Below are positions 4,808 through 61,216 of a stretch of DNA of 64,000 bases, in pieces. The DNA is from Raillietiella orientalis. Taxonomy: Eukaryota. The position numbers and the translations under genes were made by a program. The stretch covers positions 1,550,001 to 1,614,000 of the forward strand of contig JAYWIR010000039.1 of assembly GCA_036172245.1 (NCBI GenBank), given 5' to 3'. The stretch's first letter is position 1. Each line of letters starts with the position of its first letter. The notes below the pieces were generated by a model. That model had not been told where the DNA came from. It searched no databases and saw only the letters and a list, made by a program, of their open reading frames with translations.

Positions 4808-5155
4808 GCCCGCGTCGGAGGCTATGTGGTTAAGGCTTCCGCGCGTGGCACCATGCGTGGTTCGAATACTTCGGCAGAAACTGACGCCACTGCGTCTTCG
4901 AGTTCCGAGTTTCTCCTGAAACGGCGCTGGTTGGCCGAGACATTCGGGCGTGGCACCGGCGGTGGATAAAGCTGGAGGCCCCCGATGAATGCCGGAACAA
5001 TGGGAGTTGACCTTCGGGTCCTCCCAGGAATAAATGAGTGGGGAGTTCCCCCTCCTGTCGTGCAACGGAGAGCGGACCCATCTCTCTTGCGGGGGTTCCT
5101 CCGAGTCGTCGCCTCTTCACAGAGTGCACAAGGAAGCAAGCGAGAGCGTTTCCCT
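4808..5155 (+). mobile_element. SINE-like element 5' fragment with tRNA-like head
   Basis: Starts GCCCGCGTCGGAGGC exactly like 43885; GTGGTTAAGGC at 4826-4836 and GGTTCGAAT at 4859-4867; UUCG hairpin at 5002-5025. Confidence 0.8.
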
Positions 5156-5189
5156 ACAGACCTGCAGTCAGCGGCTACATTGCTTAAGT

Positions 5190-15654: not shown

Positions 15655-15813
15655 GCTGACGCTGAAAGCGAAAAGGAAGCATGAAAAAAAAGCTGAAAGG
15701 AAAACAGCGTACAGAAGAAAAAAGAAAAGAACCCAAGATTTCCATCGTCCTAGCCCAATAGTAACGATCTCCTCGTGGGGGTCGCTACGGGCCTTTATAA
15801 AAAAAAAAAAAAA
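15655..15813 (+). mobile_element. 5'-truncated SINE-like tail with terminal stem-loop and poly-A, inside the minus-strand LINE
   Basis: A-rich linker, GAACCCAAGATTTCCATCGTCCTAGCCCAATAGTAACGATCTCCTCGTGGGGGTCGCTACGGGC, then A15 at 15799-15813; 5' boundary approximate. Confidence 0.75.
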
Positions 15814-17652
15814 CCCACCATGGATTGTAAAGAATCTCGTACTTCCACGTAGTTCAGGATCATCAGATCCAAGCAGCTGATAGTCAACTAGCAAAGCAGA
15901 ATCAGATGGCCATTCAGTGGCATGATAACTCGCTTTCGTGGTTGTACCGATACAAAAATGTGGTCAAGGTCCACAGTTATAGTGCTATCTGGATTTATAC
16001 GAGAATAAACATGACTGGCAGGTAACTGGCGTAGACCATCGATCCACCAAATGGTATCCATGTTGAGTTATCTACAAAGGAGTCATTGAGATCTCCATTG
16101 ATGTACGAATAGGATCTTTGCTGCTTGCTGATGAGAGATTTTGGTTCTCCCTTCGTAAGCTGATGAGTCAACGCTAGGGCTGGATTCACAAAAATTCTCT
16201 AAGCGCTCTTTTAGAGGCTCCCACCCACGGATTTCTTTAGTAAAAGGCCTAAGAAATACTCGCATAGAGCAGGAGCCCGAGCTCTCTGGATACCATCAGA
16301 ATGATCCATGTGGAGCCTTGTCACAGAAGGGCTTTGTAGATCCTAGCCTTGCTTCCGTTAATGTGCTCAGAAGACTTCTAGTCGAGGGAGAGCTGTCAAA
16401 CTTAGCCGAATGATGGCTCCCAAAATACCTTGTGTAGATGAAAAAAAAGCTTGAGAATAAAAGTACCCGCTCGTCATTTACGTCAAGTCTTTCTTCTACT
16501 TTCTCTACTTGATTGCTGCCAGTGTCCGAGACACATTGCTGGAATGCTTCGCTTTAATAAAAGATAGTAAACCTTGAAATAGAAAGGTGTGAGCACACAC
16601 CATTTATCTAGTATGTTTTCAAATTTAATCCTTACTTGTGTTTTCAGATGCTGTTTCGATAAAATTGTTCGGTATGAAATTCATCCCTTACTTTTTAGGA
16701 TCTCCAAGAAAAGGATCTTTTTTTCTCCTTTAATACATTATATAAGGTATGCAAATGGGACAATTTTAACACTACTACTCTTCTTGCATTCCACCTTTGT
16801 GTAAAGATAGGATCGAACTATTTCTCTTTTCGTCGCTCATTACGTATGCGAGTTCCCCTGCGATAAAAAAAATATTTCTGACGATATGCTAATATGGAAA
16901 GTCGCTTGAAATGCAGGGTGCTTCATGCATGGCACGATTGTTTCGAGAAATTTAAGGGAATGCAATCTCAACTTCATTAAAACCTATGGAATACAGAAGT
17001 GTGTTTCAAAGACTATGTAGTAAATGGATCAAGTCAAAACGAGTTCCAAAAGACAGCAAATGCATCAAAGTAGACGTAAAGTTGAATCGATAATATCTCT
17101 GCTGGGTCTTGAAAAAATTCACGGAATCCCTCTGAATGCTGTGGTCACTTAACATTCCAGGAAGATAAAAGCATCAGTATCGCTTTAAACAACAGCATTT
17201 GAATCATTTCTTATGCTCTACGAATCTAGCAAAAAATTAAGCTTAATAATCCATTAATCACTTTATGATACTGAACAGGGAAGTGTTGATGAGAGAGGAA
17301 AATTGAAATTTTGTTATATTGTTTTTTTTTTGTTATAAACAAACGAAACAAATGGAGAATAAAACCCTATCATATTGTATTTTTATCCGCAGTGGTTGCA
17401 ATCATACGCATTTCATCTTCACTCTTTGTGTGAAATCAACTGGGTTTGGATTTCACAACAATTATTCAAGTTCCTCCATATGCAAGTGTTAAATTGAAGA
17501 ATGCATTCCACGCATTGTTTTCTGAGTATTCACCTTATTGATTCACGTATAAGTGTCAAGACGGAGGCTATAAACATTGTATGAAAGAAGAAGTCAGTTG
17601 CATGCTATACATCATAAACAAATAAAATGAATACAGGATAGAATGTGAGCAT

Positions 17653-42600: not shown

Positions 42601-45600
42601 TGTGGATATATCACAGTTAATATTTGCAATGTGGTTATATCTCAGTTAACGCTTGTTTATTTTTATGTAATTATTATGGATATATCTCAGTTAATATGGT
42701 AATATGGTGACATCTCAGCTCATTCCTTAATAACTCTGTGGGTGGATATATCCATCTCGCTGAATCATTAAGGAACAATCATACAGAGAGGAAGAAGTCG
42801 ACTTTAGAGGAAAAAGACCTTTGATAGCTGTTGAAGATATGATGACAGTCCACAGAAATGCTGGAGGACTCACGAAGAGAAAAATGAATTCCTATGGATA
42901 GCAGCAGTCAGCAAAAGAGTGGAACACTCGCTGAAAGGGAAGTTTCGTAAAGAACACATTTGGAAAAGCCTTCAATTCCCGTTCGGTGTTCAAGCAAAAG
43001 CTGTTTGGAGGAATGGGAGGGATGTCAATTATTCTTCCACATGATGGTATCCAATGGTGAACAAACCAACCAGAACAGGATGCGAATTTGGAAATTTGTG
43101 AGGACGCCGAGCGAAAGACCTCGCATGCAACGGAGGCAAAGGAAGTCCGTGCACACTTCTTGCAAGAAGACTAATTTATGTTGAGGATGGGGAGAAATGT
43201 GACTGTACGAAAGCTTTTCATCTTGTGGACATCGACACTCCCAAGCATCCAGGGAGAGAGGTGTGCTCTGCATGGGATTCCCCAATGCAACGACAGCAAT
43301 GCCACCTCTTGCCACTTGGGGGGGAGAGTGCCACTGTCCCAACACGCTGGGGGCCACTTTCATTTTTCGCAACTTTCATCTCATCTTTTCATTTGTTGCA
43401 AAAAAAAAAAAAAAACGGCAAGTTTTTTTTGTGGAATTCTTCAGACTTCAAGCCTGGAGAAAAACGCTGAATCTCAAGTCTGCTATTTGACTTTTGAATC
43501 TGCTATAACGAAACAAGCCTTTGGAATGCCGATACTCGAATCCATTTTCTTCATCATGAATTGAATATTCCAACGAAAAGTGAATGAAAACAGTCGAGAA
43601 GGAAGAAAAAAACACACTTTTGAGAAACCATAAGCAATAAAAATGATGACAGGCACTAATTTTTCTTAATAGGAATGCGGATGGAAACGGAAACTCGATC
43701 TTCAAGTCTGCATCCAATGTGCAATCCACTCTTAATTTACAATACTTGAATGGACTATAAATGAAAAAAGTAATAAATAACATGCTGTTGTGCCGTGAAC
43801 TTCTATAGGAGACTAGAAGTTGCGTAGTAATTATCATAATACGGGTTGTGCAGAAAATTATCTCACAAGCAATGCTTAAATGTTGCCCGCGTCGGAGGCC
43901 GTGTGGTTACGGTGGTCTCCGCGCGTGGCACCATCATGCGTCGTGGGTGCCGAGTTCACCCCACAAGATGACGCTGGCTGGCCTGCATTCATTCGGGTGC
44001 GACACTGGTAGCGGTTCAAACCGGATGCCCCCCGATGAGGGCCGGGACAAATGGGAGTCGACCTCCGGGTCCTTCCAGGAATCACGGAGTGGGAGCTCCC
44101 CTCCAGTTGTGAAGGAGCGGACCCTCCATTCCGGGGGGGACCCCCGTGTCGGACTGATGGAGTAGGTGTGTCGCCACCACCTCTCCAGAGAGTGCAGAGA
44201 CGCTAGCCGATCCCTTCCGGGAAGCTGCGTCCTTCTGAATTTCGGAAGCGTCTCTTCTCCGCCCGCGTAGGAGACTTTGTGGATTAAGGCTTCCGCACGT
44301 GGCACCATGCGTCGTGGGTTCGAATACTCCCGCAAAAACTGACGCCATTGCGTCGTTGGGTTCCGAGTTTCTCTTGCAATGGCGCTGGTTGGCAGAAACC
44401 TTCGGGCGTGGCACCGGTAGCGGTTTAAAGCCCGGAGGCTCCCGATGAAGGCCGGAACAATGGGAGTCGACCTTCGGGTCCTCCCAGGAACAAAAAGGAG
44501 TGGAGAGTTCCCCCTACGGTCGTAAAACAGAGAGCGGACCCCCCACACCGGGGGGACCCCTCGGGTTTCAAGATGGAGCAGGAACCCTCACAGGCATCTC
44601 TCCAGTTGTTTAAAGGAGCGGACCCCCCTGTTGGGGGGGTTCGCTCGTCGCCTCCTCTCCAGAAGAGTGCAAGGAAGCTAGAGCGATTCCCCTGCGGGAA
44701 GCTGCAGCGCCCCTTCTGAATTTCGGAAGTGTCCCTTCAGAGTTCTCTTCAGAGTGAACAGGAGCGGATCCTTTCCGGGTTCCCTTGGGAGAAGATGAAA
44801 CGGAGAGGACCACCCCCCTTCCGGGGGGGATCCCTCCGGAGAGAATGAGGAAGGAGATTCCCTTCTGGATCCCCCTTCGGAGACAACCAGCGTGGAAGTG
44901 CGATCCGGGGGGATCCCTCCCCAAGCGTGAGAGAAACGGACTCCTAAGCCTTCCTGGATTCACAGGGCGGACCCCCCTGCTGGTGTGCCCCCCTATCTTG
45001 AAGAATAACACGCACCCTCCGCGGGTGGCGTGGAACAGTGTTAAAGAGCCACGTGCGCGCCGCGAGGCATGCGACCGGCTCCTGAGGTACTTAGCGAACC
45101 AAAAAAACGAAAACCTGAAAAAACTGGGAAAAAAAATGCTGGAAGGGAAAAAACAGCGAAGACAGAGAAGAACCCAAAAGGATTTTTCCATAATCCCAAA
45201 ACCGTGTCGAAGAACTGTGAAGACAGAAAGGGATTTCCATCATCCTAATTAAGCAATGCTTAAACGTTCTCGACTTTGTGGGGACACATCATACCGCGTT
45301 CTACTTCCGCTATAAACAAAAAATCAGGAAGTCCCCCCAGAAATGACATAATTTTCTGGTGAACACTCTTTCCAGGACGTTGTCCGAAAAATAGTTTTGC
45401 TCTCAGCGGACGTTGGAGTACGTCTGACGTAATCATCGAAGTCGCTTGAATGATTGTGTTCTTTCTTGATCCTTTCTGGTGGGTTTACTGAGACCTAATG
45501 CACTTCATGTGCTCGCGCACTAAGGTCATGAGGAGTACAAGTGGACCACCGTGCTGTCCTTTCTACACTATGATCCGCTTCCCCTCTAACAGTTCATCGC

Positions 45601-51602: not shown

Positions 51603-54600
51603 ATAATGCAGAGGAAGTGAAGTTAGCCAAAAAGTCATGTGAACGAAAGGAATCAAAGAAACGTATCGAACATGGTAGAAAAAAGCACGGCTGCTGCTGA
51701 AGACTTCCATGGAATTGGGGTGCAAGCTGCTGCGAACCGAGCTGAAAGCTAAAGTTTCGCCTTCAAGAAAAGAGTCCATTGGAATTTAGAAGTACGAGAA
51801 ACCACAACGACTGCTTCTCTTCTAATCTCGAAACGAGATCAAAGGAAATGAGATTGTTCCCAGAACTCTTTGTGGGCAGTGCCTGCGTTTTTAACTGCAA
51901 ATTGAGCGAGGGAAGGAACCGCAGGAGTAGGAACACAGTGTACGGGAAATAAAATGTACATCTATGTAAAGAGGATGTACATTGACCCACCTTATCTCCT
52001 TCCACAGGCTGCACACACGACGGTTTGCATTCAACATCGAAGGGAGCTTGACATGGCGGATGACATCACGTGGGAGGAAATGAATTTTGGGAGAGAATCA
52101 CATCTTAACCTCAACGAGCGCGGTTGCTAGGAGAAGGATGATGGTTATTCAATGAATTGGGTTAAGGGAGGATGCGTGTGGGCCTGTTCCGGTACAGTGA
52201 CCGGAGACTGCAGACAGAAGCTATCAGGCAGATATTCTTTCCATGCTTTTCGAGGAGGGCATCCAAACGAGATCCAATTTCAACTCAATTCTGATAGGGC
52301 CAGGTTCTTCATAATGGGTTACTGAGTATGCAAAATAGTTCGATTCAGCCGGGCTCACCAAAATATATTCGAAATAAAGTAGAATACTTGGCCTAAAAAG
52401 AATGGGAGACGATAATATCCATAAAATTGCTTCCATTTCAGTTTTTTCGAGATTTACAATGAGAAAATAATCGACCTTCTGTGCGATTCCAAAGAAAATC
52501 AGAAAAAACAACTTCGCGTTCTGGACCATCCCAAACACGGATCCTCCATTCCAGGTAATGGCAACTTGCACGTATTTTTGAATTCCAGAAAAAACGAATA
52601 TCCCGAAGGAGGAAACCTGCTTTCAGAATTTCATGCCGGTTGTTTTTAATGCAAATTCCCAGCATGAAAGCGAATTTCGAATTCCCGTACACATTCGAAA
52701 CGGCAGAATGCTTGGAATCGAACCAATGGTATGACCTGATAATTCTGGTTCCAATTTGATGAACGGCTGTCGCGAAAATTAGTTAGGGTTTGTTTCAGAC
52801 GAATTCCTCGTCACCTTCTTGATCCGATCTGAGACGACGAGGAAGCATGTGTCTCCTCCATCTTATAAAAAGGAAAGTACCATCTCACAGAAAAACTGGC
52901 CTCTGGGCATGTTGTAAGTGGCGCTCTGGCAGGGGAGCTCCCCGCGTTAGAATCCGGTGTGCCGAAATACGGGAAACGCGTTTTGGACCGCCCACGCCCA
53001 TAGAGCTCCCGTCCCACTTCCCCTACTTGGAAATCTTGGGGAAAAAAACCTCCGTTGTATCGGCAGTCATTCCAGCCAAATAAATTCTCTCCTGCATGCT
53101 ACGGACATCACGGTTTCCGTGCAGAACTGTACAGCTTCTCTGAGGACTCTTTCTAAGGAACGAACGCTTCCATTTCGGGAATGTTTGTCGTTTCATACGC
53201 GAGTTCTGTAGGGGACTTCATCCCGTCCGAAAGAGTTTCCTAATGATCCGATCTCGAAAGAGCAGTGTAATCGCAGACAGCAAACCGTGATAAAGAAGAA
53301 GAAAAAAAAAATCATTGCAATTCCAAAAGATGGAGTCATCTACAAGGCAAACTCCCGAGCTGGAATAACAAGCGAGCGTTGAGAACTTCTAGACCGGAAA
53401 CTGGTAATCCAGTTTTCCTCGTTCCGGGACTTCTGAATGTCCTAACTGTACGAATGCGGCGGGCGTTGAAATCAAGCACCGCAGGAGTCGCAGAAACCGA
53501 GATGAATTTTGTCCAACTTTGCATTGCGGATGAGCATTTCTTCTTTGCCGAAGAACTTGATAGCTGGTGTCAGTTCAGTTGTTCGGATCCAGCTTTTTTC
53601 TTTTCTTTTTTTTCCATTTGGCCGTCAATGCCACTGTACCAAATGAAACAGTGCACGCCTAAAGTGACTTCTGCATTCCCCTCGGTTCCCTTTCGCTTCT
53701 CCCTTGCAGAATGCCAGCAGTTAAGACTGTCGTCGAGTTAATGAGCTTCTTCGACCCTTTCAGATCTAACCTACTTGACAATCGAGAATTTTCGCTCCTT
53801 CAACGCGATTTTGATAAATGGGATGAAGAGGCGGCATCAAGCTGAGACTCATTCTCATAAGAGAAGCAGTAGAAGCCATGCTATACTGACCCTGTGCTTG
53901 AAAAAACAGGATTCATCTCCGACTGTTAACAAGATGTACCTTGTAGACCTGGCCGGAAGGTAATAGGTCCAACCATTTGAATTTCTATGGCGCTTTCTAT
54001 GGCTTTGCAGTGAGAAACATGGAGGAGAGTGGGAGAAGTTGAGGAAAGAAGGGGCCAGTATAAACCGTTCCTTGGTCGCACTGGGCAACGTGATAAAGTC
54101 CCTAAGTAAACCCAGAATCGCCGACTCCAGTTCAACTGCTATTTCTTTGCCTCCTGCTCTATTGTTTAGGTTTAGAATCTCGGCGGAAATCAGGCAGCAG
54201 TAGAGACACCCACTTCGTACCCTACCGTGACTCCATACTCACTCGCATCTTGAAAGACGTCTTTGCAGGAGAAACGAGGATTATCATTGTCGCAAGTAAA
54301 GCAGTTCAGGGCATGCAAGCCAAACTGATTGTCCCTTCAGCTGTTTCTCCGTCTAGTGAATGCTACGGAGAGACCATGAGCACCCTCCGGTTCGCCTCAC
54401 GGGCTCAGGCCATACTCATCAAGTCCGTTGTCCACCGTCCCATCAAGTGCCACATATACGAGAGAATAAAGCAAGAGCTGTACAAGTTGAGATGCATTAT
54501 CCCAGCATCCTACTCGCACGTAATGATCTGTAATTTTTCCCTGCTCTCCGTGAGGTTCGATTCCTTGAACACTGGCTCGCAGGTGGACCTTTCGTAGCAC

Positions 54601-57600
54601 CTGAGTTGCTACCACCACCTCCGTGTCATCCGAACCCGAGTTCTCTTACTGTCTTTCCATGATCCCGAACCAGCGAAGTATTCTGTGATGTTTAGAAAGT
54701 GAATTGAGTCCCGAGGAATCCTCTCTCTCGAGCAAGAAATTTTCAAAGCTTGCCTCTAAGATGGTCTCCTTTCTCGCTGCTTCCTCGGTCTTTCTCGGAC
54801 TCCAGAAATTATTGGCACTTTGCATGCATTATGCGCGCACGTGAAGATTGGGGGAGGGGAGGGAGGGGGGCACAACGACTTCCCCCTTTCTATAACCTCG
54901 GCTAATGTGTGTTCCTCTCTTAAATCCGAAGAATGAACGTTGCGAATCTGCCATCGAAGCTAACTACCACCATATCTTGAAAAAGGGGTCCAAGAGTTTA
55001 GATGTATTAATCGACCTAGTGACGCAATGGGAGCATCAGCAGATGAAGAAGGAGAGGACCTCGGTTACGCAAGCAGCAGGACCAAATCCTCCGGTGAATA
55101 TTCACGATTTCCATTCTTTAATGCTACTGCGATAAGTTTTGTCTTACCGTGCATTGCTTGAATAATAAACCCGATGACTTTTGACACGACGGTCTGCCAG
55201 TGCAACATGCAAACATTGCCCTGGGAGCTAATTACTCAGATAGGGGCATTTTTCGAACTTGGAATGCTCCTTCATTCTATTCCCCGATTAGCCGAGTGGA
55301 GACGAACTCTCGCCAGCGCCAATGCTAGACAGTACTTCTGTACATGCTAACTGTCTTTCAGACTTTCAGTTGAAGGGTGGCCATTTTGCACATATAACGA
55401 TTCGCTAGGCTTTCGTGGCCCTTTTGATGGACCTGCATCCTCATGATTCATCTTTCCCGGTCCCAGATCGTGGAGACTGAGTTTGTAGCTTTTTGTCCGG
55501 CATCTTGCTAACATTCGCGTAATTCGAGTTGCTTGTTTCTTTGTACGAGCACGATGACTACTTTTTATGTTGCCAGAGCTGGTGGTGCATGCCTTTTGAA
55601 CTCCAGAGGCTCCGTCACCTCCTCTGGTCCAGTTTTCTTCCTCGTTTCAAGAAACACTCGTGTTGGATCTGAGGTGAATTTTCGAACCGAGCACGAACAT
55701 TACAATTTACCACTTGAACTTATAAGAGATATTCAACTTATAAGAGATTGAACCCGACGTGACACATCAGCACACGCATTTGGATGTTCGTGCAAAATTC
55801 TTCTAAACACGGAACGTCACTCAAATGAAATGAGAAGTACTTGGAAAGATAGTCGTACACTACAAAATTTCTGTTCTTTCTTTGGGAGCACTTCGAATAT
55901 GCAATAAGGAAACTCAGCAATTCGTCGTCTCTCATTGCAATTCATTTTATGTATTCTTGGTCCCACATCTTTTTAAGTACTACATGCTTGCCTTATGAGG
56001 CATTTAGAAACGTCCGAAATGAAAAAAAAAAAAAAAAAACAGCAGCAGCAATAGGAAATCAGAAACATTTAAGATTACTGCTGCCTCTTTTAAGTACATG
56101 ACCATCCTTTCGGAACGACCCTAGGTAACAGGTACGTATCCATTCGCTTTCCAGCAATGTCTTTTCTAATAGGAGAGAGCATATTGCTGTTGAGGAAGTA
56201 ATATTAATATTGAGTAATCAATAAGATTGTCGATTTTATTACTGTTTGTCTCGAATCGTACAACTGTATTGCTAGATGTCATTTTTGTAACCTGTGCTGT
56301 TTCAGGGAAGATCCATTGCATTTGCATTGCTGGCATCCAGAACCAGTACTAATAAGTACGTATAGTCATTTTTCGAGTTCTCTAATGCATTCGCTCACAT
56401 AATGCTTATGTAATTAATTACCTCAGTTGTATCTTGATGGCCATCTATCTCAGGAGTTATTTTCAAGCATGTGTGAATCTCGCTTCCGCTTTCCCGACCT
56501 TCCTCTTCGATCACATCCAGAAAGTTTGCAGATTTATATGCAGCATATCCCAAAACCGATTGCCGATGCAGAGTAATTCGTACTCATCTTCTCCCTTGAA
56601 TAGTTTAAACGCGAAAGTGCCGCTGCTATGTCCAAGGGCCGTGTAATTTTCACGTTAAAGCAGAGAACTCTTTCGTCACACGAGGCCAGAAGGAAGAAGA
56701 CTTTCTTGAAATCGCATGTTTTGGGCCCGATCTACCAGAAACATCACAACGAAAAGGCATCGTTAGAAAGAACTAAGAATCGATTTAGCTATCCCATCGC
56801 ATATGTTGATAAACACGCTTAAGAAAAGCAAATAATCTGAATTTCCTGTCTAAACAGTTTGCTTCTATGATTCATTCAGATCTTCCAAGATAACACCTGT
56901 GTGTTTTCCATAGGGAACGTGTCTGTGGGGATCCCGGGAAGCTGCATCTCTACAAACATCCAGAAATACTCAAGGCAGAGAGGGAGAACAGTCAGTTGCA
57001 TCTCTATGGTTTCGCGGTGCCTCCCTCTTCCAAAGAAAAACCGATGAAAACGCAATGCGGTTTTCCTCAAAGAGCTCCTCTCATGCTGGAGAACGACTGT
57101 ATGGATAATGGCACGAACCAGAGATCATGGGAAAGCAGTGTTGTGGATTCGGATCGTGCGAGCTCTTCGAGTAAGAAGAAGGATCCTCACGGAGAATTCA
57201 TAGAATTATCGTCGCATCCCAATAGTCTCGAAGATCCCAAAGGCCTTCAATCGGTGGAATCTCCATCATCTTGTTGTGACTCAAGTGCTCGCGTTTTTGG
57301 CCACCCTAAATTGGACGGAAAAGCAAAGAACCACCAACAGGGCTACCGAAGGAGGGCGGATTTTCAGAATTTTCCCTCTACACTTTTGAGAAACTGCCTT
57401 AGTGTTAAGAGGACCAGACTCTACCGGCTGCCGCCAGAAACATCTTGCCCATTTGGAAAACATCCTGATTTGCGTTCGAAGAACATTCAGTTAAATAGAA
57501 ACGCAGTCAGAATGGAAGGTTATCTTGCTGCACATGGTCGGGATGTTAAAATGGATGGCAGAATCCCTCACTTCGAAAATTCAGACCCAGCACACGAAGA

Positions 57601-60600
57601 TCGGATGCAGACAAGAATTCCCGATCAGAAACACACCTTAAATGGAAAACACGGAGATGTGAATGAGCAGGTGCAATCAAACGTGTGTTCTCTTTCTTTC
57701 AAGAACACGCGCAAGAGGAAAGAATGTCTTCCCAGTGCACAAGTGACCCTAGATGGCGATGCTGCCACACTCTTCAATCAACTGGACTGTGATTGGGTTT
57801 GCGAAGAACTTGGAGCAGTTAGAATCGGTCAGGATGCCGGCGCAGATGCCGTTGTCGCTAGATGCCTTCGATATGCAGCCAGAAGAAATGTCTCCTTCAA
57901 GCTGATTACGCTACTTGCCTTCTTCGAACAGATTACGGATGCAGAGTATTTTTCACGAAAGCATCTGTGCGACAGAGAACCTTGTTTTCTTCCGAAAATG
58001 GAAAGCGGTGCTAATTGTGAAGAAGATGCTTGTTGCATTGCCTTATTTTCCGTCGACCTAAATAGGAAACAACCTGCGCCGAATCGAAATAATCCCAGGA
58101 GGACGGTTTTTGAAACCATCACTACGATTTGTGGCAGTACATCTCAGGTTCATGAGTTGCCTGATTGGTTAGAACATACTTCCTCTTTTCCAATGCTACC
58201 ACGTGACGGCTGCCATTACGTCGAGGATTCTAATGTTGACGTGCCCAAGAATCCTTTGATGCACAAAGAGAGTCATAGTCCGCGGAAGCTGGAGATCACG
58301 GTTGCTGCTCATCCTGATGATGAAAGTACCAGTAAAAAATTCGAAAATCGCGCCGCCGTCTGTCAGAAAATTACTGGCAAAGAAATTCCTCATCACGCTA
58401 TTGATTCCAGTGCTTTGCGTAGTGCTGCTATTTGTTCAGATTCTCTGATAACTGACGCTTCCGAGGATGACATCGTGAAGAATCACAGCTTCGTTCCATT
58501 TCAAGAGATGGAATATGAAAGTACAATGCCGGATGAAGTAGACTATTGGGATCAGATTAAGGAGACGGAAGAGGTGTTTGTGGATTTCTCTTTCAAGGGG
58601 AAAGCATCTGATCGAGCAGATTCTGAGGAGCCTGAATTATTTGAAAGTGTCTCTAGGAAGCTTTGTCATGAAACGGATTCTTGCATCCACTCAGCAGAAG
58701 CGAAACCAACGAAAGCGAGCTCGTCGGCAGGTGAGAATTCCATGCTTCTTGACAACTGGATACAAGGAAGTGACCATTCATCGGAGCGTGAAGTGCATCC
58801 TGTCACCACCGTAAAGAGCAGGCTGGCGCCCTTGGCAGAGGATTGTAAACTACCTGCTTGCCGGGAGTGGACTTGCTCTGAGGACGCATCTTCCGCTAAC
58901 ACGCGGAACGTCTCCACGGGGATGCTGCTTGGGTCGTTTGCTCTCGATCCAAACTCTGCTCATGCAGTATCGTGGAATTTTGACGAGGAATCAAATTGGT
59001 GCTCGCACGCATACTCCAGCCTGAAAGCTCTCTTTGGAAGAAATGACGCCGTCTTATTATTCAGCCACCTCAATGTCACTGCAATCGACCGCAGCTCCCC
59101 AGATGTGTCAAAGGGTGATTTTAGCGAGGCGCCGAAATTGCCTTTTGCTTTCCAGCGATCACGACCAAGAGGTGTCGGCGTGTACTATGAGGGGAACTCG
59201 GTTGAAATTTCCGCAGATTTCAGGAAACCAGATTTGGATTTTCTCATTTGGCACGATGATTTGTGCAGCATTCCAAGCTCACGCGGAAGCCACGAGTCAG
59301 GGTTCTGCCCTTCAGAATGCAGAGGAAGTGATTTCGTTCCTTTTGAAGAATTGTTCGCGATTTTTTCGAAATTGGTGATGCCGATCGGGAAAATGGACGT
59401 CTTTTTTTCTGACAAAGAAGTTCTTCTTGAGAAGAACGAAAATGCACAGGACCCATGTAATCTGGACCTCATCTACAAAGTAGCAGCATCAATACCATTT
59501 ATGAATAATCGTTTTGAACGATTCTTCGTTCCACCTCTTCCTGGAAGCGAAATGATTCCCTCTTACTTTCAGAATGAGCAGATTGCTTTCAGAATTTCTT
59601 CGTGTCCTGTTACAACCCTCGGCATCGGAAAAGGATCAGGAAGACCGTCAACTCAAGCTTGTGATGCAATTCTAAGTTATGGGCTAGAAAAACGTATCGG
59701 AAGCGAGCTTAGTGGATCGAGATTTAATCAGCACGAGAGCAGATGGCACGCTTCCGAGCCGATGTTGTTGGAGTTTCTTCTCAGCAGCACTTCGCTGTTC
59801 GCATACCCCTTTTCCCCATTCCTAATTCAGCCGAGTTTCCAGTGTGGAGTAGGAAACCTTAGAAAGGAGCAGGTGGTTGCTCAGATGGATGCTACACGCT
59901 GGCTACCCGATGAACGTGCTGCTCCTGGTAAAACTGCCGCATTGCAGCCACACTTCGAGCTTTTTGCTATTCATTTTTCGTGTTTATCTGGAGGACAAAA
60001 GATCATCGACTTGCAAAATGTGTACTGTCAAGAGCAAAGGTTAAACATGACCACATGGCCGACTCTCACGAGAAGCAGGCACACAAGACTCACGAAGTCG
60101 ATGCCGGAAACCTCAGGGCTCGTTGCGTGCAGCCAGGTTCCTGATCGGATTTCACTGTTTCTGATGACTCATTCTTCTAAAGACAGAACTTCAGAGAAGA
60201 CTGAGAATCCTGCTAAAAAGCTGAGGAAATTGCTCGAATTTGGAGATACCCAAGAATTCCCGAGAAGAGCAAGTGCAGAAACGAGCTCGGAGAATCCGAG
60301 AATGGGAGATGACACAAAGATCTGCAGCACCCCAGTTACTCTGAGAAGCAGGAGCAAAAGCCTGTTGATCTCTAGAACTTACGACGTTCCCGGACTCGAC
60401 ACGCTTTTAACTGCATCTGCTTCTGAAATTTCGAAGCCCAGTGAAGAGAACTCGAACCTATCCGAGTTTATTTTGGATGCCTCTGTTCTACTGCGAAATC
60501 TGAAAACCATTTCCAGTCAGATAGGATACCAAATAAAAAAAGGGAACGAGTCAATCAGAAAAGCCGATCAGGATCTCAGGAAAAGGGTTCGGAGCAAAGA

Positions 60601-61216
60601 GAGAAAAACGACTGAAGAACGGGGAATCTTTGCTTCAGCACTCCAGTTGAAGTGTTGCAGAGAAAACGAACTGCCTGAGGAACTGTGCAGCTGCGGCTTC
60701 GATGAGCGTAGAACCAATTCTAGGGACAGCTTTTGTTCACCCGGCGATAGAAGTACTGAAGACACGCTAAATTGTGAGAGGGCTGGCAAGCAGCGGAATT
60801 CGAATGATTCCGAATTTTCAAAGCCTATTGAAGATCCTGAACTGAAAACCATAAAGGAGAGGAAAGCAGAATTACGACAAACTCTGTACAGGTTTTTGGT
60901 GCTGTCAGACATCAGGCGAACCAAAGAAGCCACTGACGAAACGCAAACGGATTTACGTCGTCGCCGTACACTAAGAACGCGATGCAGTGGTACTAGTCAC
61001 GAATGCTGCAGCATGGACCAGAAGAGTTTTCTTGAATCCACCGATCACTCGGATAAAAAACACAGCGTGTTGAAACATCTCACAAGTCCGTCCTTGCTGG
61101 AAACGAAAACTTCCATGATAAGCCTGCAGAACTTCTTATGCCCTTGTTTTTCTATTGAACAATACAGCGCTTATTTGCAGGAAATTAGAAGACAAGTCAT
61201 CCAGAACTCTGCTTAG
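36696..61216 (+). CDS. Kinesin-3 family motor protein, KIF16B/STARD9-like, divergent
   Basis: Motor exons 36696-36742 ([13 protein letters not shown]), 39377-39446, 41113-41223 (FTFD), 48773-48889 ([13 protein letters not shown]), 50571-50668 (GIIPRIC), 52442-52554 ([12 protein letters not shown]), 53764-53959 (SSRSH, LVDLAGS), 54011-54105 (EGASINRSL), 54170-54295 ([10 protein letters not shown]), 54341-54519 ([12 protein letters not shown]) join in frame; link to 56306-56355 and 56914-61216 is phase-compatible but tentative. Confidence 0.8.
39977..40257. mobile_element. Probable non-autonomous hAT (Charlie-like) MITE in kinesin intron 2
   Basis: CAGTGTTTCCCAAACT ... AGTTTGGGAAATGCATG imperfect terminal inverted repeats resembling hAT-Charlie ends; no clear 8-bp TSD. 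Confidence 0.55.
42601..42718. repeat. Degenerate minisatellite, about 4 copies of TGGATATATCTCAGTTAAT
   Basis: gtggatatatcacagttaat / gtggttatatctcagttaac / atggatatatctcagttaat / atggtgacatctcag. Confidence 0.65.
43885..45250 (+). mobile_element. Complete tRNA-headed SINE-like insertion with duplicated head, in kinesin intron 3
   Basis: TSD AAGCAATGCTTAAA(T/C)GTT at 43867-43884 and 45251-45268; heads at 43885 and 44261; GTGGATTAAGGC 44279-44290 and GGTTCGAAT 44317-44325; hairpin-rich body; no credible protein. Confidence 0.85.
51562..51601. repeat. (CA)n microsatellite, about 20 units
   Basis: Read directly from sequence. Confidence 0.95.
56914..61216 (+). CDS. 4.3-kb open exon, Ser/Glu/Asp-rich, no recognisable domain; probable kinesin tail
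   Basis: Frame open from 56894 to TAG at 61214-61216; acceptor TTTTCCATAG ends at 56913; charged helical stretches near the C-terminus. Confidence 0.75.

Follow-up and report, generated by a model that had tools for sequence, protein, structure and literature searches.

A probable long SINE family of Raillietiella orientalis with a tRNA-like head and copy ends suggestive of priming by its own terminal hairpin

The analyzed window, 64,000 nt of contig JAYWIR010000039.1 of Raillietiella orientalis, contains at 43867–45268 two nested copies of a dispersed repeat; all window features given below are on the forward strand. The preliminary description had treated 43885–45250 as a single element. 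We observe instead A-type sequence at 43885–44258 (reference positions 1–407), continuing at 45200–45247 (reference 737–785), and between these parts an inserted B2-type copy, 44261–45197 (reference 1–927), which replaces approximately 330 nt of the A host copy. This nesting also replaces the reading of the interval as a dimer, which was rejected. The 18-bp target-site duplication (TSD) with one mismatch was confirmed (43867–43884 and 45251–45268, 17 of 18 bases equal) and belongs to the A copy. The claimed 5' start GCCCGCGT is indeed located at 4808, 43885, and 44261, and all hairpins quoted earlier were found where they had been placed. In the copy starting at 43885 the internal head duplication has collapsed, with the first B box lost. 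Neither interval copy carries the true 3' end of the family (terminal hairpin, T-run, poly(A)), which is found in the window at about 2025–2066 and 15750–15815 and, genome-wide, by 53 matches of a 39-mer. Both terminate at the base of the terminal hairpin, which in the B2 reference lies at position 926.

The nested B2 copy is 5'-intact, with neither poly(A) nor TSD. It begins with a terminal rod hairpin with a UGGU-type loop (44261–44303), which covers an A-box-like motif (44272–44282) and has the same helix in the A, B1, and B2 folds, with pair-keeping changes. The second helix domain (44304–44389) has a duplicated T-arm-like segment, a B-box-like motif at tRNA spacing (44317–44327), and one two-sided change between A and B. 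The third is a long rod with internal loops (44390–44454), with a C-G/U-A change between B and A; its 3' strand holds CCGAUGA (44442–44448). This heptamer had been described as a loop, but its first four bases have an unpaired probability of at most 0.04 in all three consensus ensemble folds, and the small hairpin around it is possible as an alternative fold only. The body (44462–45035) comprises about a dozen related hairpins with a period of 40–42 nt, the unit having a purine-rich 5' arm, a pyrimidine bulge on the 5' side, and a C-run/G-run upper stem. It is followed by a GCGA-loop hairpin (45046–45081), present in the B subfamilies and missing from A, and by an A-rich linker (45098–45179), which has this length only in B and is a frequent site of 3' truncation.

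Folding yields a z-score of –3.3 against 20 shuffles. The interval holds three cUUCGg loops; in the A, B1, and B2 consensuses they number 2, 6, and 4 in the sense orientation versus 1, 0, and 0 in antisense. The reported tendency of indels to fall in loops is weak, as 57 of 128 short deletions begin at unpaired positions versus 35% expected. Open reading frames of the interval are stop-to-stop frames of 152–217 aa with no start required, and copies differ by frequent indels; for a 1440-aa ORF no homologue was found. ARAGORN predicted no tRNAs in the window, and U5 was the sole Rfam match there.

Several more copies are present in the window. A B1 copy, beginning 106 bases before the window, occupies 1–844 and is broken at about 844 by a 5'-truncated L1-like LINE with poly(A) (843–1994), sitting in the A-rich end of the B1 copy and encoding a protein 85% identical to that of the array LINE L118; the remainder of the interrupted copy, with most of the terminal hairpin, follows at 1995–2066. 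A B-type copy at 4808–5167 is 5'-intact and 3'-truncated, with an internal deletion, and a 5'-truncated copy at 15683–15815 (left edge set by eye) retains the whole terminal hairpin, TTT, and poly(A).

The family is dispersed over the genome: one B-type 19-mer has 508 matches, which means at least that many B-type copies, while its reversed control has none. The reference lengths are 823 nt for A, 971 nt for B2, and 1072 nt for B1, all exceeding the 75–662 nt spanned by the 175 SINE families described in SINEBase (PMC3531059), a range that is descriptive, not definitional. By its sequence the family appears dispersed, repeated, and non-coding, as in the SINEBase definition, and it is probably an L1-type SINE with a tRNA-like head, longer than all 175 families of that collection. 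We labeled the consensuses from 95 copies, whose choice was in part guided by similarity to two queries. The A and B masters are 14–17% apart and have copies of like age, with whole modules gained or lost between masters. In complete copies the terminal hairpin is followed by T2–4, poly(A), and a TSD, with T2–T4 ends in 40 of 47; none of the four references has an internal T4 run, and each has three to seven A4 runs. Most copies are 5'-intact (26 of 30 picked by motif, 24 of 26 young ones), and there is a strong excess of 3'- over 5'-truncated copies.

Searches elsewhere gave no relatives: a 29-nt motif had no matches in metagenome contigs, a 24-nt motif had none in viral contigs, and a 16-nt head motif matched at least 119 metagenome stretches, all by chance (best profile E-value 0.08). 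Neither the family nor integrated self-primed SINE copies were found in the literature as covered by titles and the starts of abstracts, subscription journals and repeat databases lying outside this scope. No telomere repeat was found at 20 contig ends. The tRNA, 18S, and HSP70 sequences of the genome are of animal type, and named relatives of its HSP70 belong mostly to insects and crustaceans, none exceeding 81%.

The family bears the hallmarks of retroposition, tail and TSD, and these are distributed unevenly among copy-end classes. In a pooled set of 125 5'-intact copies, TSDs (score 9 or more) were called in 22 of 37 complete copies, 13 of 51 upstream-truncated, 2 of 24 ending at the hairpin base, 1 of 7 inverted, and 0 of 6 ending in the hairpin, with 0, 0, 0, 1, and 0 in the respective shifted controls. 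An A-run follows the end in 26 of 37 complete, 1 of 24 base-ended, and 0 of 7 inverted copies (Fisher p = 3e-5). Ends at the base of the terminal hairpin, with neither tail nor duplication, occur in many copies; they are common in subfamily A, where 13 of 27 copies end within 19 nt at this site and one is complete (p = 9e-12), and rare in young B1 (1 of 25). The upstream-truncated class belongs with tailless retropseudogenes; most base-ended copies (TSD in 2 of 24) do not. Among young truncated copies 8 of 19 have TSDs, and junction overlap with the target is seen in L254, L259, and L265. A TSD is nevertheless present in one inverted copy (L275) and in some base-ended ones, namely the A copy of the interval and L412, and target priming therefore also reaches the hairpin-base site. 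Of 28 distinct loci taken in contig order, with classes corrected by eye, 12 are complete, nine base-ended, three have a short forward arm, and four are of the snap-back type.

Exact junction search (control 0) identified 11 loci, six of A, two of B1, and three of B2, in which the copy's own hairpin reappears as its reverse complement, beginning with the terminal U's. Each contains 9–28 nt of the arm of its own subfamily; the forward arm and poly(A) are missing in all 11, and one has a TSD. In a search with one A allowed at the junction, eight of 11 matches show at least two A's, the remaining three being forward hairpins. At one locus, L413, a whole A RNA is directly followed by the reverse complement of the body, beginning from the hairpin base. 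The inverted and base-ended junctions fit a model in which the 3' end of the RNA served as primer for its own reverse transcription. Extension of RNA hairpins by human L1 ORF2p has been shown in vitro, a uridylated hairpin derived from Alu being one of the substrates (PMC10830420), and tail-to-tail repeats are the arrangement expected from sense self-priming in the discussion of PMC3846280. The base-ended copies without tail or TSD, the 11 inverted-arm loci, and the whole RNA with its snap-back copy are new here.

We consider it likely that these sequences constitute a lineage-specific non-coding SINE of about 0.82 (A), 0.97 (B2), and 1.07 kb (B1), multiplied via three routes, one of them self-priming. 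Pol III would start at a fixed G1 from tRNA-type internal boxes and stop in the T-run after the terminal hairpin. By the first route, an L1-like LINE of the poly(A) type would reverse-transcribe A-tailed RNA by target priming, giving complete copies with poly(A) and TSD; the hallmarks of this route are observed, and the partner is a candidate. The host has many L1-like LINEs of the APE-RT type with poly(A). BLASTN found no tail shared with the array LINE, the best-scoring and only LINE family compared, and a 10-nt look-alike in the terminal loops of family and LINE was rejected, since a hand estimate puts it at the level of chance and A lacks it. By the second route, target DNA would prime inside the RNA, often at A-rich linkers, yielding copies that have no tail, part of which show a TSD and microhomology at the junction. 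By the third, which we infer from junction sequences, in RNA that lacks a tail, the 3' UUU-OH at the end of the terminal hairpin would slip onto the A at the hairpin base and prime cDNA synthesis along that very RNA; capture of the product would leave no TSD. Loss of the primer arm would leave a copy ending at the hairpin base, a second strand running over the arm would produce an inverted arm, and copying of the whole RNA-cDNA molecule, a tail-to-tail repeat.

A bolder version, which we put forward tentatively and hold at somewhat less than even confidence, is that the terminal hairpin is a built-in primer by which un-tailed Pol III transcripts self-prime independently of endonuclease, that a large share of germ-line copies (about half of subfamily A) arose in this way as a record of SINE self-priming, and that the 5' three-helix domain is a selected RNP-binding module.

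The strongest competing explanation, still unlikely in our estimation, is a long SINE of ordinary kind that moves solely by the poly(A) and tailless routes. On this view, insertion or repair would have involved fold-back of DNA, or a template switch, at the imperfect palindrome of the terminus, leaving inverted ends, and the hot spot at the hairpin base would reflect target priming within the RNA at its last open stretch, or else RNA trimmed by a nuclease. It gains from the few base-ended copies with TSDs, from the reported mapping of tailless copies to loops and single-stranded parts (PMC5322556), and from self-annealing of 3' overhangs at L1-made breaks, described as leading to inversions and inverted duplications (bioRxiv 10.1101/2024.12.14.628481). 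However, in all eight cases in which a single T would also have been accepted, the inverted junctions start at two or three terminal T's; such junctions never include a poly(A)-derived T-run and always lack the forward arm (11 of 11). The L413 snap-back adjoins the T's with no A tail between, and the tailless copies of PMC5322556 are defined there by TSDs, which base-ended copies mostly lack.

Selection for RNA structure had been proposed with emphasis on the 0.8-kb hairpin body; our results support it for no more than the first ~260 nt. Among private changes in copies, just 19–31% preserve pairing; copies decay neutrally, and therefore master-level tests were used for covariation. Given the fold of B1 alone, A substitutions in the first ~260 nt (split at column 265, chosen after the whole-length test) break three pairs versus 12.1 expected (p = 1e-4) and include four two-sided changes versus 0.98 (p = 0.011). 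In the reverse direction four pairs are broken versus 11.6 (p = 3e-4), with three two-sided changes versus 1.07 (p = 0.08), the signal being one comparison of two masters with three to four two-sided changes. Whole-length tests give 21 broken pairs versus 32.1 (p = 0.003) and 28 versus 40.8 (p = 0.001), with p = 0.014 and 0.58 for two-sided changes. Between masters, 13 Watson–Crick pairs of this domain changed to G-U and two to A-C, while the same ratio for rare changes in copies is 62:52 and 54:45; CpG decay, considered as a source of the G-U bias, was not seen and was rejected. The covariation term of RNAalifold is small (–1.85 kcal/mol, 5 of 57 pairs). The data support one RNA fold kept across subfamily masters in the first ~260 nt, suggesting RNA-level selection.

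It is rather improbable that all structure is a by-product of tandem-copied palindromic DNA units and neutral decay, with no RNA selection anywhere. For the body as tested this holds: column tests are null (18 broken versus 17.5 expected, 23 versus 28.1), the G-U:A-C ratio is 11:15, both strands fold equally, and hairpins recur at 40–42 nt. Sequence comparison shows that the body grew by tandem copying of a ~41-nt hairpin unit. (Tandem Repeats Finder reported only A-runs in L061, the period being visible by k-mer lags only.) The low rate of pair-keeping among private changes also accords with it. In contrast, the 5' domain has no 40–42-nt period, its sense strand folds 16–20 kcal/mol better, and its changes between masters preserve pairing and show a G-U bias specific to the strand.

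The earlier suggestion of a retroposing Pol III-type RNA is upheld as far as anatomy goes: fixed 5' start, A/B-box spacing, terminal T-run, poly(A), TSDs, and several subfamilies. Pol III transcription is predicted from A and B boxes read at tRNA spacing, the B box departing from the host consensus by an A for the C present in 59 of 61 host tRNAs. The B head scores 59 against host tRNA-Gly, with shuffles reaching at most 49 over 61 tRNAs; the A head, at 55 against a shuffle maximum of 57, is no better than shuffles. A tRNA-Sec origin was rejected (score 37, below the shuffle mean of 45; Rfam 15.6 bits, E-value 5.2). Rfam gave no match to 7SL or 5S, and nothing above chance at the gathering threshold or at E-value 10. 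In 120 copies, a minority of the family, the TATA-like upstream element (–36 to –20) is missing in 119, the one match being a TA microsatellite, and the upstream DNA does not match that of U6 or tRNA-Sec. The host genome has 48 U6 matches; a host PSE could not be defined from U6, U5, and tRNA-Sec flanks.

These observations bear on the suggestion that the copies are retrocopies of an unknown cellular ncRNA, more exactly of one or a few functional Pol III RNA genes, 7SK-, BC1-, or VA-like decoys or scaffolds with the bulged-hairpin array as protein sites. The RNA-level constraint on the 5' domain, the fixed terminator after the terminal hairpin with T2–4 and poly(A) ends as in small-RNA retrocopies, and the excess of 3'-truncated copies are in its favor, and L003 and L063, complete with long T-runs but with neither tail nor TSD, could be source genes. 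Still, the distant masters amplified at like times with modules gained and lost, the body has no selection signal, and upstream promoter elements and an Rfam family are lacking as above, so that we regard this origin as having only a slim chance. A UTR or LTR of an autonomous element is rejected by the unique flanks and the lack of similarity to the host L1 3' UTR.

It is highly improbable that the family is retrozyme-like and has a hammerhead, or another self-cleaving ribozyme, around CCGAUGA: a relaxed type I reading in B pairs eight of nine stem I positions, but has two mismatches to the hammerhead core, is equaled by 19% of shuffles, and is not at that place in A, while CCGA is paired in the ensemble, no Rfam ribozyme family appears even at E-value 10, and copy ends do not map to the site, leaving the earlier idea of self-cleavage unsupported.

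Self-priming of SINE RNA is an old proposal. It has been demonstrated in vitro with L1 ORF2p, and cytosolic Alu cDNA has been connected with it; that cDNA is portrayed as made apart from retrotransposition, while the present family offers integrated copies. Its junctions record the candidate primer to the base in three subfamilies and suggest a simple in vitro test. If the interpretation is true, they document SINE self-priming and integration in nature at single-base resolution, and the 5' three-helix domain would be an RNP-binding module under selection, carried by a transcript about 1.6 times as long as the longest SINEBase family. The family stretches the known SINE size range, and one molecule separates a structurally selected head from body hairpins made by tandem copying, a caution for scans that equate hairpin density with function.

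With tRNA-derived SINEs, as described in SINEBase (PMC3531059), the family shares dispersed non-coding copies, tRNA-type head boxes, a body of obscure origin, an A tail, subfamilies, and internal duplications. It differs in length (0.82–1.07 kb versus 75–662 nt in 175 families), in its own terminator after a terminal hairpin, in rods replacing the cloverleaf, and in that most copies are 5'-intact and 3'-truncated. The latter form, with RNA-internal priming, often at A-rich stretches, and with TSDs and junction microhomology, is shared with tailless retropseudogenes and SINEs of therians as characterized in PMC5322556. Here, however, the host is arthropod-like, tailless copies are the majority, and TSDs are mostly missing from the base-ended and inverted-arm classes; neither "self-priming" nor "inversion" occurs as a term in the main text of that paper. 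Hairpin-primed reverse transcription of Alu, a proposal noted in PMC3820591, is reported for human L1 ORF2p (PMC10830420, PMC8480932) either in vitro or from cDNA of the cytosol formed outside retrotransposition, the primer pairing with the oligo(A) tail, whereas in this family the primer would be a dedicated terminal hairpin and the products, integrated germ-line copies known from junction sequences. Finally, in Penelope-like elements of Adineta vaga self-priming was likewise inferred from inverted repeats with palindromic junctions (PMC3846280). Those elements are autonomous and their repeats mostly head-to-head, which is ascribed there to an antisense template, while our family is non-coding and tail-to-tail, the arrangement that the same account expects from a sense template.

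Within the interval 43885–45250 of the window, described preliminarily as a single element, we observe a nested pair of copies: an A-type copy (43885–44258 and 45200–45247), flanked by the 18-bp target-site duplication (TSD) that was correctly noted earlier, contains a B2 copy (44261–45197) which replaces about 330 nt of A and lacks both a tail and a duplication. In the A and the B2 copy alike, the sequence ends at the terminal-hairpin base; other copies within the window show the element's true 3' end. The motifs of the preliminary description are present in the window sequence where it had placed them.

By its tRNA, 18S, and HSP70 sequences, the host is probably an arthropod-like animal, with no close relative among the proteins compared. 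The element occurs in dispersed copies: in the 210-Mb genome a 19-mer at element nt ~195 has 508 matches at ≤1 mismatch (control 0), a count mostly omitting subfamily A, which differs within that 19-mer, and a 17-mer close to the 3' end has 288 exact matches. ARAGORN and Rfam do not recognize it. Subfamilies A, B1, and B2 were derived from 95 copies, with consensus identity of 83% (A–B1), 86% (A–B2), and 95% (B1–B2); copies diverge from their own consensus by 6–8%, and a young B1 branch is 95–99% uniform. Two loci, L454 and L455, each combine two different copies tail to tail at the hairpin bases, the hairpins being absent; in each pair the divergence of one member exceeds that of A, B1, and B2, and therefore further subfamilies exist (likewise L415 and L456–L458).

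The full references are 823 (A), 1072 (B1), and 971 nt (B2) long. From the fixed 5' start GCCCGCG, they comprise A-box-like and B-box-like motifs spaced as in tRNA, a duplicated T-arm-like segment, two further helices, a hairpin array, in the B subfamilies a GCGA-loop hairpin with an A-rich linker, and the terminal hairpin followed by a T-run. Forty of 47 complete copies end in T2–T4, mostly followed by an A tail, and an internal T4 run is absent from all four references. The tRNA likeness of the B head exceeds that of shuffles (59 vs. at most 49), while that of the A head does not. The B-box-like motif carries A at a position occupied by C in 59 of 61 host tRNAs. Comparison led us to reject tRNA-Sec as the parent of the head. 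Separately, a host tRNA (L122, G000 C7:1404522) has the Lys TTT anticodon in a body resembling host tRNA-Thr(TGT).

Because retrocopies decay neutrally, structure was tested on changes between masters, the source sequences of the subfamilies, rather than between copies. B1 was folded alone (pairs with probability >0.6) and A substitutions were laid on it, with random placement of the same substitutions as the null. Over the whole length 21 pairs are broken vs. 32.1 expected (p = 0.003), and 28 vs. 40.8 in the reverse direction (p = 0.001). Upon division at column 265, chosen after the whole-length test, the 5' part has 3 broken pairs vs. 12.1 expected (p = 1e-4; reverse, 4 vs. 11.6, p = 3e-4) and 4 two-sided changes vs. 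0.98 (p = 0.011; reverse, 3 vs. 1.07, p = 0.08), whereas the body shows no pair-keeping signal (18 broken vs. 17.5 expected; reverse, 23 vs. 28.1). Among Watson–Crick pairs altered between masters, the 5' part shows 13 changes to G–U and 2 to A–C; both directions were tallied, so a few pairs may have been entered twice. The corresponding figures are 11 and 15 for the body, and for the rare changes seen in copies 62:52 and 54:45. The sense strand folds better by 16–20 kcal/mol in the 5' part, the body about equally on both strands. Run on 23 sequences, RNAalifold again gives helices two and three and the first hairpin of the body; 5 of its 57 pairs differ on both sides, and the covariation term is small. 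It draws the first helix differently from the single-sequence prediction, and the beginning of the alignment is disturbed by two A rows that were poorly cut.

Selected RNA structure in the 5' part is thus quite likely, so that the selection proposed preliminarily for the element gains support there and, by the tests run, not in the body. Still, by eye, some body hairpins differ between A and B by bases added or missing on both arms at once; such changes are invisible to column tests, and hence selection on the body may exist. The body has a period of 40–42 nt. Its hairpins (e.g., 44462–44485) mostly have a 5'-side pyrimidine bulge, then G–C, then A–U or G–C, a layout that may resemble the arginine-binding bulges of TAR and 7SK; descent from a single unit would account for it equally well. 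CCGAUGA, formerly read as an invariant loop, makes up the 3' side of a rod. A hammerhead-like reading around it was rejected, as 19% of shuffles match it.

The majority of copies are 5'-intact and 3'-truncated: 26 of 30 motif-picked copies have an intact 5' end and 7 an intact 3' end (24 and 7, respectively, among 26 young copies). In a pool of 125 5'-intact copies from mixed selections, excluding duplicates, the focal locus, and 5'-truncated copies, TSDs are found in 22/37 complete, 13/51 upstream-truncated, 2/24 base-ended, and 0/6 copies ending inside the terminal hairpin (control 0 in each class), and in 1/7 inverted copies (control 1). Complete copies thus carry the marks of insertion in the L1 manner. 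Many APE-RT LINEs of the host end in poly(A); no tail common to the element and those compared was found.

Twenty-seven A copies were picked by the 5' part. Of these, 13 have their ends inside a 19-nt stretch at the hairpin base, and one is complete; some A copies run on into the hairpin's 3' arm in reverse complement. Searching the genome for this inverted-arm junction yielded 11 loci (6 A, 2 B1, 3 B2; control 0), 10 of them beginning ≤10 nt from the element 5' end. The inverted piece (9–28 nt) matches the copy's own subfamily and in B copies passes through the loop; the forward arm and poly(A) are missing in all 11 loci, and the TSD rate, 1/11, equals that of controls. The other strand gave three more loci, two with very short arms. 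The first pattern required two A's; when one was allowed, 8 of 11 matches had two or three A's, the other three being forward hairpins of diverged copies. At one locus (L413) the whole A RNA through its T's leads straight into the body in reverse complement, starting at the hairpin base, and three further loci have tail-to-tail joints without the hairpin. Among 28 distinct base-reaching loci in contig order (classes corrected by eye, one palindrome half and one duplicate removed), complete copies number 12 and base-ended copies 9; a short forward arm is present in 3, and the remaining 4 (one partial) are of the snap-back type.

The inverted junctions probably originated by self-priming: the last U of an un-tailed transcript would pair with A at the hairpin base, the remaining terminal U's would loop out, and reverse transcriptase would then extend the paired U on the element's own RNA. 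Human ORF2p extends RNA hairpins, including one that derives from Alu and is uridylated (PMC10830420), Alu cDNA in the cytoplasm is reported not to depend on retrotransposition (PMC8480932), tail-to-tail repeats are the expected product of sense self-priming (PMC3846280), and self-priming has been proposed for Alu (PMC3820591). The junctions could instead stem from DNA-level palindrome repair or from DNA ends folding back on themselves at L1 breaks, the latter also reported to yield inverted duplications (bioRxiv 10.1101/2024.12.14.628481). Palindrome repair, however, should leave one T or the tail. Twin priming, for its part, gives head-to-head junctions with poly(A) kept. Counting against self-priming are TSDs on some base-ended copies, including the A copy of the interval, and the rarity of the base-ended class in young B1 (1/25); as a major copy route it is conceivable, but we lean somewhat against it.

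A 5'-truncated L1-like LINE with poly(A), in sense orientation, lies at 843–1994, where it interrupts a B1 copy near its A-rich terminus; this A-rich target is apparently duplicated and the true LINE 3' end is visible. L1/Tx1-like LINEs, many with long open frames, form head-to-tail arrays ~5.5 kb apart (L153–L155; G000 C71, C150), and several contig ends lie within LINE sequence of this kind. In the G000 C7:652323 region (L255), the U6 3' half runs straight into the 5' end of a young copy, a U6–SINE chimera of the kind expected from template switching. U6 has 48 scored matches in G000; several of the eight examined resemble retrocopies, of which one bears poly(A) and another is 3'-truncated and flanked by a repeat. 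Truncated copies L248 and L196/L024 (both on C2) have a common 3' junction and ~160 nt of common 3' flank with differing 5' flanks; the common flank extends beyond T-runs, which makes simple Pol III read-through an inadequate explanation. A B-type copy on C23 (L159) directly adjoins a dispersed 18S rRNA fragment. The window also contains a U5 snRNA match (16165–16284, minus strand; Rfam, 61 bits), at 54106–61216 a kinesin motor exon and, after it, a 1440-aa open frame without homologues among the 7999 scored candidates, and two repeat pairs unrelated to the family, one inverted (4176–4396/5169–5365, 82%) and one direct (6002–6468/31626–32097, 66%).

Literature searches, covering titles and abstract starts with incomplete coverage, found neither such a family nor integrated self-primed SINE copies. 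The element is very likely a SINE; at 823–1072 nt it exceeds the 75–662 nt given for 175 SINEBase families in PMC3531059. Those of its upstream-truncated copies that have junction overlap fit the tailless route outlined in PMC5322556. Judged from sequence, the element agrees with the testable sequence-level characteristics of poly(A)-dependent tRNA SINEs and appears to work in the same mode.
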